DNA of 32,589 nucleotides, from NCBI GenBank assembly GCA_039000165.1, contig JAWBTW010000008.1:1-32589 (forward strand). The letters run 5' to 3'. Below, piece by piece: positions 266-7,881 of this stretch. Numbering within the stretch: the first letter of the stretch is position 1; the number at the start of each line of letters is the position of its first letter. The translations under genes were made by a program, and so were the position numbers. Source of the stretch: Candidatus Aenigmatarchaeota archaeon (GTDB taxonomy: Archaea; Aenigmatarchaeota; Aenigmatarchaeia; CG10238-14; SCSR01). Below the pieces are notes generated by a model, which was not told the DNA's origin, searched no databases, and was given only the letters and a program-made list of their open reading frames with translations.

Positions 266-306
266 GAAACTACCATAGGATAAGCTGTTTATCAAGTCCT
301 GGCAAC
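266..306 (-). other. 3' arm of pre-23S processing stem (BHB)
   Basis: Inverted repeat of 3546-3586; GUCCUGGCAAC/GUUGCCAGGAC helix, GAG bulge, UCAA/UUGA 4-bp helix, UAA bulge, then a long outer helix starting with one mismatch. Confidence 0.9.
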
Positions 307-610
307 CTCGGGCGATTAGGAAAGGCGGGCTGAACGCCTCGCTCGAAAGCTTGGCGCGTACACCCCCTTCCTATCAACCTCCTCGTCTAGGAGAGCCCTC
401 GTTGCTCTACCGTTCCTTGCGGAACAGCAGAGCAATTGGCTGTCTATTTTCCCGGGCGGTTTCGTCCTTAGATGCCTTCAGGACTTATCCGCTATGGCTT
501 AGCTGCCCGGCTGTGCCATGAACAACCGGTAGACCAGAGGCCACGGATGGGTGTTCCTTTCGTACTCACCCATCCTTCCGGTCAGACAGCCAGCACCTCC
601 GGTAGATAGC

Positions 611-644
<34 letters not shown>

Positions 645-743
645 AACGTCCCCCTTTAACCAGTGGGCACCTGTACCCTTGGCCGCTACTGCACGGCCAG
701 GAGGGGGGGAGCCGACAGCGACGCACCAACGCGCCGGGTCAAT

Positions 744-786
744 TTACCCGCTCGTCGCTATCCTGTGGGATGAAAACCCCTGAGCT
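744..786 (-). other. 23S BHB intron, 43 nt, after E. coli-equivalent 2477 (H89)
   Basis: GCCC/GGGU central helix, AC|A and AA|A bulges, GCUC/GAGC intron stem; removal restores GAAAGCCCACAUUGAC. Confidence 0.9.
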
Positions 787-958
787 GTGGGCTTTCACCG
801 GCCACGGGCCCATTATCCCCGAGGTAGCTTTTCTGATACCACCGGCCGCCATTAAGGCGAACCGATGTATCGCTAGCCCAGGCTTTCGCCCTTGGATCCC
901 TCGCTTTGCGGGATCCAATCAACCCAGCTTTTGCGCTTACACTCTACTCCGGATTTCT

Positions 959-1054
959 TTCGGGTGTCAGAAGCTGGTTAAAGCTCATGAGCTACCTCCA
1001 TACTCATCTTTAATCATTCTGGAGCAGTGTAATCATAGCTTCAACTTCTGACAT
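959..1054 (-). other. 23S BHB intron, 96 nt, after E. coli-equivalent ~2306 (H84 loop); contains a box C/D guide layout
   Basis: CGGG/CCCG helix, UC|A and AA|A bulges, 9-bp UGUCAGAAG/CUUCUGACA stem; removal restores GGGUCAGAAAUCC. Confidence 0.95.
976..1045 (-). ncRNA. Intron-encoded box C/D-like guide RNA (predicted 23S G2251 and U2438)
   Basis: C AUGAUUA (1030-1036), guide CACUGCUCCAGA, D' AUGA, C' AAGAUGA, guide ending GAGGUAGCUC, D AUGA (985-988), closing stem GUUGAAGC/GCUUUAAC. Confidence 0.75.
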
Positions 1055-1109
1055 GACCCGGATGAGCTGAGCTTTGGGCGCCCTTGATCTCTTACCAAGG
1101 GCGTACCGC

Positions 1110-1193
1110 TTGCTGGTTTAGGAGCTGTTCAGACCGTATGCCCCTAATCATCTTTTCATAACTTAAGGGACTCTACATTCCAACTCCTAAACT
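1110..1193 (-). other. 23S BHB intron, 84 nt, in the P-loop after E. coli-equivalent G2252
   Basis: GCUG/CAGC helix, GG|A and AA|G bulges, 12-bp intron stem; removal restores GGCUGGGGCGGUAC. Confidence 0.95.
1116..1192 (-). ncRNA. Intron-encoded box C/D-like guide RNA with two 16S targets
   Basis: Degenerate C AUGUAGA, guide UCCCUUAAGUU, D' AUGA, C' AAGAUGA, guide GGGGCAUACGG(U), D CUGA; both 11-mers are perfectly complementary to 16S (6944-6954 and 6652-6662). Confidence 0.85.
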
Positions 1194-1346
1194 CCCAGCC
1201 GAACTGCCCATCTGACGCTGTCCCCTTACGGGTAAGCCGTAAGGTTGAAAAGGGCTGGTGTTACACTTTCCTCTCAGCCTCGGCCGAAGCCTACGCCTGA
1301 TAACGAGTCCCAGCTACTCTATGCAATTTCAACCTTACAGCAACGC

Positions 1347-1377
<31 letters not shown>

Positions 1378-1505
1378 TTTCCCACCGGAGGTCTCTGGCC
1401 TATTCACCAGAACAGCAATTTCGCTGGGTCCCAACCCAGGACAGCGGGGAAGTCGTTAAGCCGTTGAACGGGCCGTCAATTAAACGGCAAGGGATTGCGC
1501 TACTT

Positions 1506-1551
1506 ATGTCGCCCAGGCGGCGTATCATCAAATCAGATGACCGCCCTGAGT
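1506..1551 (-). other. 23S BHB-type intron, 46 nt, after E. coli-equivalent A1927 (just 3' of H69), with K-loop
   Basis: GUCG/CGAC helix, UA|A and AU|A bulges, CUCAGG/CCUGGG stem, imperfect outer helix; internal AUCUGA-UUU-GAUGAU K-loop. Confidence 0.92.
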
Positions 1552-3545
1552 TACGACGGTCAGAGTTACCGCCGCCGTTTGCCGGGGCTTCTCCCGGTTG
1601 GAACCGGGTTTCACACACCGGCACTGGGCAGACCTCAGAGACTGTACAAATCCTTTCGGACTAGCAGTCTCCTATGTTTTTGTTAAACAGTCGCTTCCCC
1701 CTTGTCACTGCGACCTGCTCTCCCTTTCGAGAGAACAGGCACCCCTTCTAGCGAACATACGGGGCCAGTTTGCCGATTTCCCTGGATTGGGTTCTCCCAA
1801 CACGCCTTCGCCTTCTCAGCGACCCTACCTGTGTCGGTTCTCGGTACGATCATGGAGGATCCTTCCAGCTTCCCTTTTCACGGGTTCCAGGAATCGGCCG
1901 AACTCCGCATACGCGGAGCTATTCCTGTCTTCACCTACTTCTCCTCATTACGAGACTCCGTAGGCTTCAACAGTTAACTTGCGTCGGCCTATCCTGAAAC
2001 GTCGGAAAGCTGGCTTGCGTTGCCGCACGTACCTCCATGGTATCGGAATATTAACCGATTTCCCCTTCGAGCGCTTCGGTTAAGAGCGCCCTTAGGATCG
2101 ACTAACTGCCAGCTGACGAACATTGCTGGCAAACCCTGAGGGTTCAGGCGGCTGGGATTTTCACCCAGCTATGCTGCTACTCATGGCAGGATCTTCAATT
2201 CTGCACGGTCCACTTGTTCTTACGAACAAGCTTCTACCCGTGCAGAACGCCTCCCTACCCCCTGCTTTCGCAGGTCTGGGGTATCGACAGCCGGCTTAGT
2301 CCCTTCCATTTTCAGGGCCCAAACCCTCGGCGGGTAAGCTGTTACGCACTTTTTAACTGATGGCTGCTTCTAAGCCTACAGCCCCGCTGTCTATGGGTTT
2401 GGACTCCCTTCTTCGTTTAGCCGGCATTTAGGGGTCTTAACCCCAGGTTGGGTTGTTCCCCTTTTGGGCACCGAGCTTAACCCAGTGCCCTCACTCTGGC
2501 CTTCTCAGGCAGCAGTAGATTCAGAGTTTGACAGGACGGCTGATGCTTTCGCACCTTGACCGTCCAATCAGTCTCTTTACCCTACTGCTTACCTCCGGCC
2601 AGGCTGAGCTGACGCTCATTTCGGGAGGAACCAGCTATCACCGGTCTCGATTGGCTTTTCACCCCTAACCCTGGGTCAACCGAGCGATTGGGTCTCAGCA
2701 CCGGTTCGGACCTCCATTCCTCTTTCGAGGAACTTCATCCTGCCCAGGGTTAGATCGACCGGCTTCGGGTCTTGCTCGAGTAATTTCGGGCGCTTTCACA
2801 CCCCGCCCCACGTCTCTTGCGAGACTACGGGCTTGTCGCTTTCGCTACGGCTACGGGGCTTAAACCCCTTAACCTCACTACTCGAGCAAACTCCCTGCCC
2901 CGTTTTTCAGAACGGATGCTAGGACACTGTAAGCTACTCCTCGTACTCTTCTCTTGCGAGAATTTCCTTCGGAGTAGCACCTTTCATGCCCTAGCTGACT
3001 ATGCCCAACTTGGTTTCAGGCTCTTTTCACCCCGCTTTCGCGGTACTTTTCAGCTTTCTCTCACGATACTAGTCCGCTATCGGACTTGGTTAGTATTTAG
3101 GGTTGGATGTTAATGCCACCCAAATTCCCACTCCATATCCAAGGAATGGTACTCAGGAGACTTGGCATTTTCCTTCTTGCCTTCCCCTACGGGACTATCA
3201 CCCTCTATGGTGGAGCTTTCCAGCTCACTTCGGGTCGACAAGCGAGGAAAGACCCAAGTCCTGTAACTCCACATCCTTTCTTTCTTTTCGAAAGAAAGTT
3301 CGGTTTGCCCTGTTCGGCTTTCGGTCGCCCCTACTCACCGAATCTCGTTTGATTTCTTTTCCTGCGCCTACTGAGATGCTTCACTTCGGCGCGTTCCCTC
3401 TCCTTCCGGAGTAGCCCTTAACGGGCTAGGAATCCCATTCGGCAATCCTGGGGTCAAATCCTCCATGCGGATAACCCAGGCTTATCGCAGCTTGGCACGG
3501 CCTTCTTCGGCTAACCAAGCCGAGCCATCCACCAAGTGGGCTACT

Positions 3546-3586
3546 GTTGCCAGGACCTCTTGACCAGCCTATCCTATGGTAGTTTC
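3546..3586 (-). other. 5' arm of pre-23S processing stem (BHB)
   Basis: Pairs with 266-306. Confidence 0.9.
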
Positions 3587-3593
3587 ATCTTCT

Positions 3594-3655
3594 GGTTTCA
3601 TAAAGACAGTTCGTTCTTCATCTTTCATCAGACGCTGTCAGTTAAGTCATCAACC
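3594..3655 (-). ncRNA. Box C/D-like guide RNA in the 23S leader (module A; predicted U2504 and A2600)
   Basis: C UUGAUGA, guide ending CUGACAGCG(U), D' CUGA, C' AAGAUGA, guide containing CGAACUGUCU, D AUGA, GGUU/AACC ends; matches 23S 712-720 and 614-624. Confidence 0.75.
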
Positions 3656-3702: not shown

Positions 3703-3760
3703 AGCTCGTTAGGTGCCCATTTCTTCATCTTTTATCAGTTAGAAGGGCAAACTCATAGCT
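3703..3760 (-). ncRNA. Box C/D-like guide RNA in the 23S leader (module B; predicted U2552)
   Basis: Co-varied K-turn AUGAGUU/AACGA, D' CUGA, C' AAGAUGA; guide UGGGCACCU perfectly complementary to the A-loop at 664-672. Confidence 0.75.
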
Positions 3761-3972: not shown

Positions 3973-4121
3973 AATTAATTATTTCTAATTTAGTTAAGAT
4001 GAAGATAAAATTTTATCCTTACGATTTTAAGTCGTTCGGAATCCTTTACTTTTTCTGAAAAATTCTTCGAGAAATTTTTCAATTTTTTAAGCTTTAAATT
4101 CTTTACTACTTTTTTATAAGT

Positions 4122-4846
4122 ATGGAAAGGGAGGAAGACATAGAAGTAGAGTTCCAATCAACTCTAGAGGAAATTAAAGAAAAAACGGGCTTTAAAAAAG
4201 AGTGTATTTTAGATCTCTTTATCTTCGAACTTTGCAGAAGAGAAAAAAAGCACATCAAAATTTTAGGAAACATCCAATCGGTATAGCTCATCTTATTTCT
4301 CTGTACATCGATCCCTCTCTCTTGAATTATTCAATAGTCGAAGGTCCTGGAGCACCTATTAAAAAAACTCTTCATCCTTCTTCAACTTTTCTTGATGAAG
4401 AGAAAATAGAGTATGTTGATTATTTTTGTAGCTACTTTCTAATTAGTCCTAATATGCCTGTGCCAAGAAAAGAGTTAAAGGATAGCATCTTAGTCTGTTT
4501 ACTTTCTGATTTAGAAACTCCTTATAGAATAGGATTGATAAATCCTTCTCGAGTATTAGGCATAAAAATTGAAATGGATAAATATGATGAAGGAAACATT
4601 AACTCTCAACTCTGTACCTTCAGAAAATTTTATGGTTGTAACCAAATTCATAGAATTAGTGATGAAGAATTATACGAGTACACAAAAGAAAAAATGAAAG
4701 AGAAGTTTGCAGACTATGAAAAGAGAAGTGAAACCTTGTATAAAATCTTCAAACCATTTTATGAAACTTACAGAAGTTTTCTAATCAAGGAGCTTGAAAG
4801 ATTGGCTAGAGAACTCATGGGAAAACATAGAACATATGTAACGTAA
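4122..4846 (+). pseudogene. Hypothetical protein split by a -1 frameshift (4122-4286 plus frame ending 4846)
   Basis: ATG at 4122 lies about 24 nt after a TTTAAA box; the 54-aa frame overlaps a -1 frame open from 4196 to 4846. Confidence 0.5.
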
Positions 4847-4935
4847 AAATGCAAGTCTTATTAAGTAAAAAGTTCTTTTCATTTTCTTTGCTCTGAAATA
4901 TTAGTGATTTAAAGCTTACGATTATTTAATTTATT

Positions 4936-5742
4936 ATGCCTTTGGTAACAATCCATTACCATACAAAAGAAGGAGAAAAACTTAACCTAGGAAAAACTTC
5001 AAAAAAATTAGCAGAAGATTTTGAAAAAAGCAAAGTAGATTATCTTATTCTTACTGACAAAGCTTTTGCGTGTGAAAAAATCGATTTGCCGATAAAAGCT
5101 TTCAAAAAAATCAAATCTTACCTTAAAGCAAAAAAAGAAAACTTGCTTTTTGGTTTAGAATTTTTAACTTTCGACAATTATCATATTTTGGGTTTATGCT
5201 TAACTCCAGAAAAATGGGAAAACAAGGTATCGCCAAAAAATTTAGAAGATGTTTGCAAGAGTGTAGAAAGGGACGAAGGATTTATTGTCGTTCCGCACCA
5301 GTTTGGACCCTGCGGGTTGGGTAAAAGAGCGGATGAGATAATTAAACTTTACGAAAAAGGTGAAATTTGTCATAAACCTTTCATAGAAGTAAGCTATTAC
5401 TTGGAATCTATCCCTTCATTAAAAAAAGGTCTTAAAAAAGCAAACAAAGAAGCTATAAATTATGCTAGAAAAAACAACTTGGCCTTGATTTCTGGCTTAG
5501 ACTCAAGGTTCAAAAATTTTGATTTAGCTTTTAATTTCTTTAAAGAAGATATAACTAACTGCTTAGAAAAAGCTTCGTTACAAGGCTTTAACAACAATTA
5601 TATAATTCCTTACATTACTCCTTCGCATACTCCCATGCTTATGGAAACCATATATTTGCTAAGAGATCATACGATTGGTTTCCTAAGAACTGGTAAATTT
5701 GAAATAGCTAGTTATTTCCTGAGTCAAATAAGTAAGAGTTAA
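4936..5742 (+). CDS. PHP-domain phosphoesterase-like protein with degenerate metal ligands
   Basis: Motif order HYHT / LTDK / GLE..HILGL / VPHQF / IEV / GLDSR resembles PHP HxH, TDH, GxE, AHP, SDAH. Confidence 0.7.
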   Translation: MPLVTIHYHTKEGEKLNLGKTSKKLAEDFEKSKVDYLILTDKAFACEKIDLPIKAFKKIKSYLKAKKENLLFGLEFLTFDNYHILGLCLTPEKWENKVSPKNLEDVCKSVERDEGFIVVPHQFGPCGLGKRADEIIKLYEKGEICHKPFIEVSYYLESIPSLKKGLKKANKEAINYARKNNLALISGLDSRFKNFDLAFNFFKEDITNCLEKASLQGFNNNYIIPYITPSHTPMLMETIYLLRDHTIGFLRTGKFEIASYFLSQISKS

Positions 5743-5770
5743 ATCTTTTAAAGTATTTTTATTTTCAAAG

Positions 5771-6223
5771 ATGACAGAAGTAAAAAACTATGTTGGAATT
5801 CTTTTCGGGTTAGATAAGGATAGAGACGCGAGAAACTATTGCTTAAAACTGATGAAGAAATACGAGAATAATGAGAATTTTATTTTTGTTGACTTGGAAT
5901 GTTTTGCGAAAAAGGAAAGCAAAATAAAAGTTCTGTCAAAATTCTCTAAAGTTTGTTTTGGTGTGCACAGTTGTGATGATTATTCACCAACGATTTTTGA
6001 ACTAGAGTTCTGTGATAAAGGTATTGTTAGGGATTTGGCTTTTTATTTACAAGAAAAAAAACTTGTCGATAGGTTGTTCCCTTATCCTTATGAGATGTGG
6101 AAGTTAAGAGACTTTCCTACAAATTTTGGTATCATAGAAATTTTCGGAAATGAAAAGGCTTTTCATCGTTTCGAACAATTACTTCTTCAAACTTTGGAAT
6201 TCTTAAAAACTCAAAGAATTTAA
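5771..6223 (+). CDS. Hypothetical protein
   Basis: 150-aa ORF with typical composition; no family recognised. Confidence 0.7.
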   Translation: MTEVKNYVGILFGLDKDRDARNYCLKLMKKYENNENFIFVDLECFAKKESKIKVLSKFSKVCFGVHSCDDYSPTIFELEFCDKGIVRDLAFYLQEKKLVDRLFPYPYEMWKLRDFPTNFGIIEIFGNEKAFHRFEQLLLQTLEFLKTQRI

Positions 6224-6283
6224 ATTTTTGTTAGACGTCTAACATTAATACAACCTATACCTTTCTTTTGATAAAAAGAAAGA

Positions 6284-6318
6284 AGGTAGCGATTTTTGGT
6301 GCCTAGAGGTATTACCGC
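6284..6318 (-). other. 3' arm of pre-16S processing stem (BHB)
   Basis: AAUACCUCUAGG-CACC-AAA-AAUC pairs with GAUU-GGUG-AAA-CCUAGAGGUAUU at 7889-7911; canonical BHB. Confidence 0.92.
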
Positions 6319-6331
6319 ACACAAAGACTTA

Positions 6332-7881
<1,550 letters not shown>

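Follow-up and report, generated by a model that had tools for sequence, protein, structure and literature searches.

In the hot-spring Candidatus Aenigmatarchaeota archaeon studied here (genome of 783 kb), the catalytic P-loop of the 23S rRNA gene is interrupted by an 84-nt insert, and we consider it likely, judging from its sequence and that of its homologs, that this insert represents a bulge-helix-bulge (BHB) intron whose interior is a working dual-guide box C/D RNA. The two guides are complementary to separate segments of the 16S rRNA, and the intron would thereby direct 2'-O-methylation of the nucleotides corresponding to U912 and U1203 of Escherichia coli 16S rRNA. It is further predicted to be assembled into a ribonucleoprotein and, once excised, to be circular. 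Positions refer to the window, that is, the whole 32,589-nt stretch of DNA that was analyzed, in which the 23S and 16S rRNA genes both lie on the minus strand; labels beginning with G denote genomes (G000 is the genome studied) and those beginning with L denote loci.

1110..1193, minus strand: 84-nt BHB intron in 23S helix 80, the P-loop (alignments; RNA contigs join 1109 to 1194)
296..3556, minus strand: host 23S rRNA gene (Rfam archaeal model)
6332..7881, minus strand: target 16S rRNA gene, a separate transcription unit (Rfam and layout of open reading frames [ORFs])

Position and probable excision of the P-loop insert

The site of the insert emerges from two alignments. In the Rfam 23S alignment, GGCUGGG is followed by 86 bases, compared with 2 in the model, and then by GGUACGCCC, while alignment to the E. 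coli 23S gene with mafft sets the 84 nt (1193 down to 1110) between G2252 and G2253. This agrees with an earlier interpretation of the window made from the letters alone (the sequence-only reading), which had placed an interruption of the catalytic P-loop at 1110..1193. In at least 12 relatives, the P-loop is uninterrupted and its flanks are adjacent. The borders of the insert have the architecture of a BHB intron, with a helix, a 3-nt bulge, a 4-bp helix, a second 3-nt bulge, and another helix, and the pairing extends outward beyond the 4-bp central helix as UCG/CGG.

1196..1199, minus strand: exon bases GCUG, the 5' strand of the central BHB helix (4 bp), pairing with CAGC at 1112-1115 (3' end of the intron)
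1193-1195 and 1109-1111, minus strand: 3-nt BHB bulges GGA and AAG (sequence reading)
1181..1192, minus strand: GUUUAGGAGUUG, the 5' strand of the inner closing stem (12 bp), pairing with CAGCUCCUAAAC at 1116-1127

The archaeal splicing endonuclease cuts within the bulges, after the second bulge base on each side, which predicts cleavage after G1194 and after A1110. Exons joined at these cuts read GGCUGGG|GCGGUAC, the universal P-loop, and removal of the intron leaves GGCUGGGGCGGUAC, the same sequence as in intron-less relatives and colinear with E. coli 2246-2259. The columns of the central helix and bulges are invariant in all seven homologous introns that we aligned. The intron RNA also folds much better than its shuffled counterparts (z = -3.98, with 0 of 200 shuffles as good). 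The minimum-free-energy fold itself was rejected, as its outer helix is one register out and its guides are paired together; only the BHB register, which we prefer for this reason, combines a 4-bp helix and a pair of 3-nt bulges with a mature sequence that is correct. Both the splicing endonuclease EndA (PF01974, 95 bits) and the RNA ligase RtcB (PF01139, 549 bits) are encoded in the genome, with scores above the Pfam cut-offs. The P-loop intron itself contains no ORF for a homing endonuclease, since 84 nt is too short to hold one.

Evidence at the level of RNA comes from two metatranscriptome runs of a single study, which were compared alongside two DNA runs at 90% likeness as contigs rather than raw reads. 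One contig of each RNA run, and none of either DNA run, connects 1109 to 1194 and so omits exactly 84 bases, and the DNA contigs run through the intron unchanged. Another RNA contig covers 1194-1363 (3 of 170 bases differ); its match ends exactly at 1194, and it carries 9 extra bases unlike the intron. Excision of the P-loop intron in RNA is thus supported, not proven. In addition, a back-joint from 3557 to 288 (length 3270; flanking sides 155 and 76 bases long), seen in RNA only, corresponds to the circular pre-23S intermediate that processing at BHB motifs should produce, and its presence shows that a near-identical organism was expressed in that sample. Among the matches listed, no RNA piece lies over 1110-1193, which is uninformative either way as contigs drop rare forms; equally uninformative either way, 15 of the 102 joints include none for a circular intron or for the second 23S intron and the 16S intron described below.

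The box C/D frame and its predicted targets in 16S rRNA

Read as RNA from 1178 to 1129, the interior of the intron consists of AUGUAGA, GUCCCUUAAGUU, AUGA, AAAG, AUGAUUA, GGGGCAUACGGU, and CUGA, which corresponds to a C box, 12 nt, a D' box, a loop, a C' box, another 12 nt, and a D box.

1172..1178, minus strand: C box AUGUAGA (AUGAAGA or AUGAGGA in relatives)
1160..1171, minus strand: D' guide GUCCCUUAAGUU, 11 nt complementary to 16S (1 of 12 columns varies among the seven sequences)
1156..1159, minus strand: D' box AUGA (invariant in all seven)
1145..1151, minus strand: C' box AUGAUUA (invariant in all seven)
1133..1144, minus strand: D guide GGGGCAUACGGU, 11 nt complementary to 16S (core GGGCAUACG invariant)
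1129..1132, minus strand: D box CUGA (CUAA in G015 and L119, CCGA in G097)

Both spacers measure 12 nt, and a spacer of about 12 nt is the norm for archaeal dual-guide box C/D small RNAs (sRNAs). The internal motif has the features of a K-loop, with a D'-C' gap of 3-6 nt across the seven sequences and GA dinucleotides kept in both boxes, and the sixth base of C', a U, can plausibly pair with the first base of D', an A, in place of the usual G-C. The terminal motif includes a CUGA D box and the 12-bp closing stem, and the C box AUGUAGA permits the first G-A pair and has a U for the second A; the consensus for these boxes is RUGAUGA (C) and CUGA (D), and both it and the kink-turn rules follow in part PMC7994747. 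A loose C/D pattern run over both strands of the 783-kb genome matches four places, namely, the two 23S introns, a tRNA-Ser(UGA) intron, and one doubtful site. The genome also encodes fibrillarin (PF01269, 284 bits), Nop5 (PF01798, 231 bits), and L7Ae (PF01248, 109 bits), all above the Pfam cut-offs, and the Nop5 and fibrillarin genes are adjacent.

The D' guide UCCCUUAAGUU (1170-1160) is the exact complement of 16S 6944-6954 and abuts the D' box AUGA, and the D guide GGGGCAUACGG (1144-1134) is the exact complement of 16S 6652-6662 and ends 1 base before CUGA, with 11 of 12 positions of each guide forming Watson-Crick pairs to 16S. The fifth nucleotide upstream of D' pairs with 6950 and that upstream of D with 6659, which correspond in the alignment to E. 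coli 16S to U912 and U1203, respectively.

6944..6954, minus strand: 16S target of the D' guide, AACUUAAGGGA (predicted 2'-O-methyl site 6950, E. coli 912)
6652..6662, minus strand: 16S target of the D guide, CCGUAUGCCCC (predicted 2'-O-methyl site 6659, E. coli 1203)

These targets are 291 nt apart in different regions of the 16S rRNA, and each target 11-mer occurs once in the genome besides the antisense strand of the intron itself. No Watson-Crick run of 8 or more was found between either guide and the 23S rRNA, and the arrangement is not that of the tRNA-Trp type of guide, as the guide RNA resides in 23S rRNA and has both of its targets in 16S. By comparison, 2,700 of 1,548,393 genomic 12-mers (0.17%) hold a Watson-Crick complement of at least 11 nt to the rRNAs, and, among 200,000 shuffles of the intron, 442 have one such spacer and none has both.

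The 16S gene is separated from tRNA-Ala/23S by the region 3973-6332, in which the opposite strand bears three ORFs (4202-4846, 4936-5742, and 5771-6223), and is therefore a separate unit on which the guide would have to act in trans. On all of these points, the sequence-only reading holds up: it had proposed both guide matches, with D'+5 at the 912 equivalent and D+5 at the 1203 equivalent, had considered two such in-register matches unlikely by chance, and had 16S transcribed apart from 23S, for which trans action is a reasonable reading. It had also claimed that the first guide fits a variant particular to this organism rather than the usual archaeal form. The 16S rRNA does read AACUUAAGGGA as claimed, AAACUUAAAGG being the usual archaeal form, and, among the relatives examined, G021 has AAAGG at this site.

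Taken together, these features suggest a pathway in which the tRNA-Ala/23S precursor would be transcribed and the splicing endonuclease would cut in both 3-nt bulges, after which RtcB would ligate the exons to restore the P-loop and probably circularize the intron. The C/D and C'/D' motifs would recruit L7Ae, Nop5, and fibrillarin, perhaps while the intron is still part of the precursor, and the pairing of the D' guide with AACUUAAGGGA and of the D guide with CCGUAUGCCCC would lead to 2'-O-methylation of U912 and U1203. Acting in trans, one such guide would be supplied for each 23S rRNA made.

Homologous introns and competing explanations

BLAST searches with the intron against 118 genomes of the order identified five (G000, G001, G015, G095, and G097), from three genera of one family, that carry full-length homologs at this P-loop site, and the same five only were recovered when the search was widened to 371 genomes of the phylum. 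The value of 5 of 118 is to be taken as "found in" rather than as a frequency because many of the genomes lack assembled rRNA. Weak matches in G101, G047, and G054 are neither introns nor guides. A metagenome scan yielded seven loci, six with a complete intron and one cut short, and added two new variants, and the resulting conservation alignment comprises seven distinct homologous introns. In this alignment, variation is found in 14 of 24 columns of the closing stem and all 6 columns of the loop, compared with 4 of 24 in the two guides, none of 11 in the D' and C' boxes, 2 of 7 in the C box, and 2 of 4 in the D box. Covariation in relatives had been named beforehand as a check, and it is borne out: 6 of the 12 stem pairs have changed on both sides in a compensatory manner, 96.4% of cells remain paired, and 0 of 500 shuffles reach the observed covariation score, with shifted registers only 24-46% paired. 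As the changes in the stem are compensatory and the guides are steady, the stem is evidently kept as structure and the guides as sequence.

The terminal boxes vary in a manner that seems to follow the behavior of a kink-turn. In G097, the C box AUGAGGA is combined with the D box CCGA (alignment pair 33-78), giving a G-C where A-U or G-U is found elsewhere. The CUAA D box of G015 and L119 has an A at the position matching Thelohania Kt-23, a kink-turn crystallized while bound to L7Ae according to the account in PMC3985660.

The 16S targets in relatives can be compared with these guides. The AACUUAAGGGA form is present in G001, G023, G063, G097, two G095 contigs, and G150, and a further G095 contig, probably from another organism in the bin, differs, as does G021. 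The AAGGG form needed by the D' guide is found in G150 and in each of the four operons that carry the intron and have a readable site (G000, G001, G095 C29, and G097). At the second target, UCCGUAUGCCCC is found in G001, G012, G023, and G095 C29, and GGCCC in G150.

The same guides are also found in other hosts. In G150, which belongs to another family, a tRNA-Ser(UGA) intron (L124 1440-1600, minus strand) carries AAUGUAGA-GUCCCUUAAGUC-AUGA, that is, the same C box and guide, and since AUGUAGA recurs there with the same guide, we read it as a tolerated variant rather than damage. The D guide lies in a C/D frame inside a tRNA-Arg(CCU) intron of G034 (L049) and is a free gene beside tRNA-Arg(CCU) in G061 and G063 (L046 and L047). 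Pattern searches were of less use. The guide 1 pattern, CCYTTAAGTTNTGA, matched 18 places in 17 of the 118 genomes, about as many as a reversed control, of which 13 lay outside P-loop introns and were without box motifs, and it would have missed the G150 variant. The guide 2 pattern, GGCATACGNNYNRA, was too loose, with a C box nearby only in the P-loop introns, G034, and G061/G063.

Several observations weigh against a working guide RNA. The C box is degenerate here, as the sequence-only reading had noted, and in AUGUAGA the A of the second sheared G-A pair is replaced by U, which, by the general rules for kink-turns, may weaken the binding of L7Ae. The C' (AUGAUUA) and D' (AUGA) boxes are off consensus, and the D box of the G015 lineage is CUAA. 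In G015, L119, and G097, 2-3 guide bases beside the D box differ, leaving a core duplex of 9 bp. The minimum-free-energy fold pairs the guides in part with each other (GUCCCU with AGGGGC), so part of their conservation could serve the structure of the intron itself. Finally, the RNA contigs that join 1109 to 1194 have short sides of only 19 and 27 bases, and intron-less archaeal 23S rRNA in the same RNA run could give the same joint. With regard to the terminal motif, a guide engineered to lack C/D motifs reportedly functions in the absence of L7Ae (PMC9670817), and the long closing helix of the intron may therefore compensate.

It is unlikely, in our estimation, that the intron is a relic, in which a C/D guide was caught by, or relocated to, a BHB intron that in this genome is now only spliced out and degraded, its function lost or taken over elsewhere. 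The loss of the consensus A from the C box and the CUAA D box of the G015 lineage would fit such decay, and the small number of carriers within the order, together with the uninterrupted P-loops of at least 12 relatives, implies that organisms can live without this copy. Against this, the seven sequences, which represent three genera, show far less change in the guides than in the stem or loop, and none in the C'/D' boxes. This genome has no other carrier of either guide, and the combination of AUGUAGA with the D' guide is also found in another family. It also seems quite improbable that the intron pairs with 16S rRNA primarily as a chaperone or coupling device, to hold two distant segments or to tie assembly of the small subunit to processing of the large one, with methylation secondary or absent. 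The N. equitans (Nanoarchaeum equitans) sRNAs sR15 and sR17, which are dual guides for distant 16S positions, are proposed as folding chaperones (PMC4644070), and both the distance between the targets in different 16S regions and the degenerate terminal kink-turn would suit such a role. Simple pairing, however, requires neither duplexes in exact register with D' and D nor spacers of exactly 12 nt, both of which methylation does require, and fibrillarin and Nop5 are encoded. Chance complementarity within an ordinary short structured BHB intron is hardly credible, as, although rRNA complements of 9 and 10 nt are common (4.9% and 1.0% of genomic 12-mers, respectively), 11-nt runs are rare and were never found in both spacers of a shuffle, the two matches fill the two spacers of a C/D frame and are conserved, and tRNA introns elsewhere contain the same guides, again within C/D frames.

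Known systems, the second 23S intron, and other inserts

Each kind of component, a BHB intron and a box C/D guide, is known, but we could not find the combination and its location described. A full-text literature search, with subscription papers and supplements outside its scope, did not uncover any account of an rRNA intron that carries a C/D guide. As presented in the relevant sections of PMC7994747 and PMC3491384, archaeal C/D genes are intergenic, overlap ORFs, lie downstream of tRNAs, or reside in tRNA introns, and archaeal rRNA introns are treated as ORF-bearing or of unknown content in those of PMC3608112 and PMC4496867. The former of these, a 2013 review, leaves open whether functional non-coding RNAs arise from the rRNA introns of archaea (PMC3608112). 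The introns in Desulfurococcus mobilis 23S and Pyrobaculum 16S are likewise bounded by BHB motifs, located at conserved rRNA sites, and cut by the tRNA splicing endonuclease, but they hold an ORF, in some cases for a homing endonuclease, or nothing that these accounts report as known, whereas the intron here has 84 nt, no ORF, and a predicted guide (PMC3608112, PMC4496867).

Among known guides, that of the pre-tRNA-Trp intron (Haloferax volcanii, and sR50 of Pyrococcus) is similarly a dual-guide C/D RNA inside a BHB intron and released by the endonuclease, but it resides in a tRNA and methylates its own host at C34 and U39, in contrast to a 23S P-loop host with targets in 16S (PMC7994747). The elongator tRNA-Met intron of N. 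equitans shares with the P-loop intron a small genome of the DPANN type, an intron-derived C/D RNA, and a degenerate C box; its C/D-like RNA is described as stable, "mobile C/D box sRNAs" appear to move, and circular forms occur (PMC3491384). Its host is a tRNA, however, and the passages of PMC3491384 on this RNA report no rRNA-intron host and do not tie its targets to the rRNA of the other subunit. As for sR15 and sR17, these resemble the P-loop guide in that one C/D RNA addresses two widely separated 16S positions, but the positions differ (G930/G1217 and A915/U1370 in the numbering of that paper), and the text concerning them does not describe them as borne by rRNA introns (PMC4644070). A more distant likeness is to eukaryotic intron-encoded box C/D snoRNAs, for which the guide is also a by-product of splicing of a ribosome-linked host transcript (PMC7994747). 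Those snoRNAs come from spliceosomal introns of mRNA or non-coding hosts and are processed by exonucleases, whereas the intron here lies within an rRNA and is spliced by proteins. The 16S-D RNA of Sulfolobus and Archaeoglobus, attributed to Tang et al. (2002), is said to be a pre-rRNA-derived, C/D-like RNA that is released and religated at BHB motifs and binds L7Ae; it reportedly stems from an external spacer rather than an intron and has no identified guide target.

The 23S gene of this organism contains a second intron of the same kind.

959..1054, minus strand: second 23S BHB intron, 96 nt, at E. coli 2306/2307, with a C/D frame (same BHB design)

Its frame reads AUGAUUA, CACUGCUCCAGA, AUGA, UUAAAG, AUGAGUA, UGGAGGUAGCUC, and AUGA. 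The D' guide CACUGCUCCAGA forms 8 Watson-Crick and 2 G-U pairs with CUGGG|GCGGU of the spliced P-loop, and its fifth nucleotide, in a register that is our own reading, falls on G2251, the conserved P-loop methylation site. The D guide pairs with 23S AGCUACCUC, with U2438 at the fifth nucleotide. An intron at the 2306/2307 site is present in 17 of the 23 relatives for which flanks were found (24 loci examined), and the homologous guide has at least 10 contiguous pairs with the P-loop in 14 of these 17, with an interrupted version in G029, G038, and G014. As the P-loop intron lies inside the target of this guide, G2251 is, where both introns exist, fully pairable only after the P-loop intron has been removed.

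Introns in the 16S genes of relatives abut both targets of the P-loop guides (L053 and L061 in G095 C29, L036 in G021, L052 in G097, and L058 in G095 C3). One, of 224 nt, directly follows AACUUAAGGGAA, and one, of 85-88 nt, lies two bases before CCGUAUGCCCC. The proximity may arise simply because conserved sites coincide, or it may reflect a link between guide binding and intron insertion. Separately, a C/D RNA with guides AAUGGCUUGACU and GUCGGAGGUGAG, aimed at the 3' region of 16S, is the tRNA-Ser(UGA) intron in the genome studied (G000 C1:43505-43553, minus strand), and the same C/D RNA is a 16S intron near position 1510 in G015, G021, G023, G095, and G097 (loci L032, L035, L036, L052, L053, and L058).

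A broader possibility, which we offer tentatively, is that much of the guide repertoire of this lineage may be cargo of protein-spliced rRNA and tRNA introns and of the pre-23S leader, that these modules may move between hosts, perhaps via circular RNA, and that new introns may land at or beside guide-target duplexes. The last element is suggested by the position of the P-loop intron inside the G2251 guide target and by two 16S introns of relatives that abut the two targets of the P-loop intron. If true, the system would be an archaeal counterpart, and possibly a forerunner, of eukaryotic intron-encoded snoRNAs, and it would impose a fixed order of maturation, with P-loop splicing before methylation of G2251 and one small-subunit guide supplied per large-subunit rRNA. 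As the intron sits in the P-loop of the peptidyl-transferase center, its splicing is obligatory for a working ribosome. Together with its sister intron, it offers a directly testable case of guide supply coupled to rRNA synthesis with a forced order of splicing and modification, as well as of guide RNAs whose host (an rRNA intron, a tRNA intron, or a free gene) switches between close lineages, and it is relevant to how intron-encoded snoRNAs arose. In practical terms, it accounts for short rRNA inserts in DPANN genomes that trip annotation pipelines and "universal" primers.

Other inserts and modules were observed in the same rRNA units. A 43-nt insert relative to E. coli 23S, at approximately 743-785 (minus strand), has a BHB-like border in which GCCC pairs with GGGU, with bulges ACA and AAA; a 43-base skip (742 to 786) is found in contigs of both RNA runs and not in the DNA runs, and the insert is possibly a third mini-intron without cargo. 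The 16S gene contains a BHB intron of 81-82 nt at 7065-7146 (minus strand), after GAUACCCCGGU and near E. coli position 800, with a CUGA-UGAAAAG-AUGAAGA module, no clear terminal C/D pair, and a guide-like stretch that forms a 14-pair run (9 Watson-Crick and 5 G-U) with 16S near mature position 605. Lastly, two C/D-like modules are found in the tRNA-Ala/23S leader, at 3598-3653 and 3706-3756 (minus strand), and the first of them has a D guide, ACGAACUGUCUUU, that pairs with UGAGACAGUUCG of 23S and has A2600 at the fifth nucleotide, a site at which relatives have introns.

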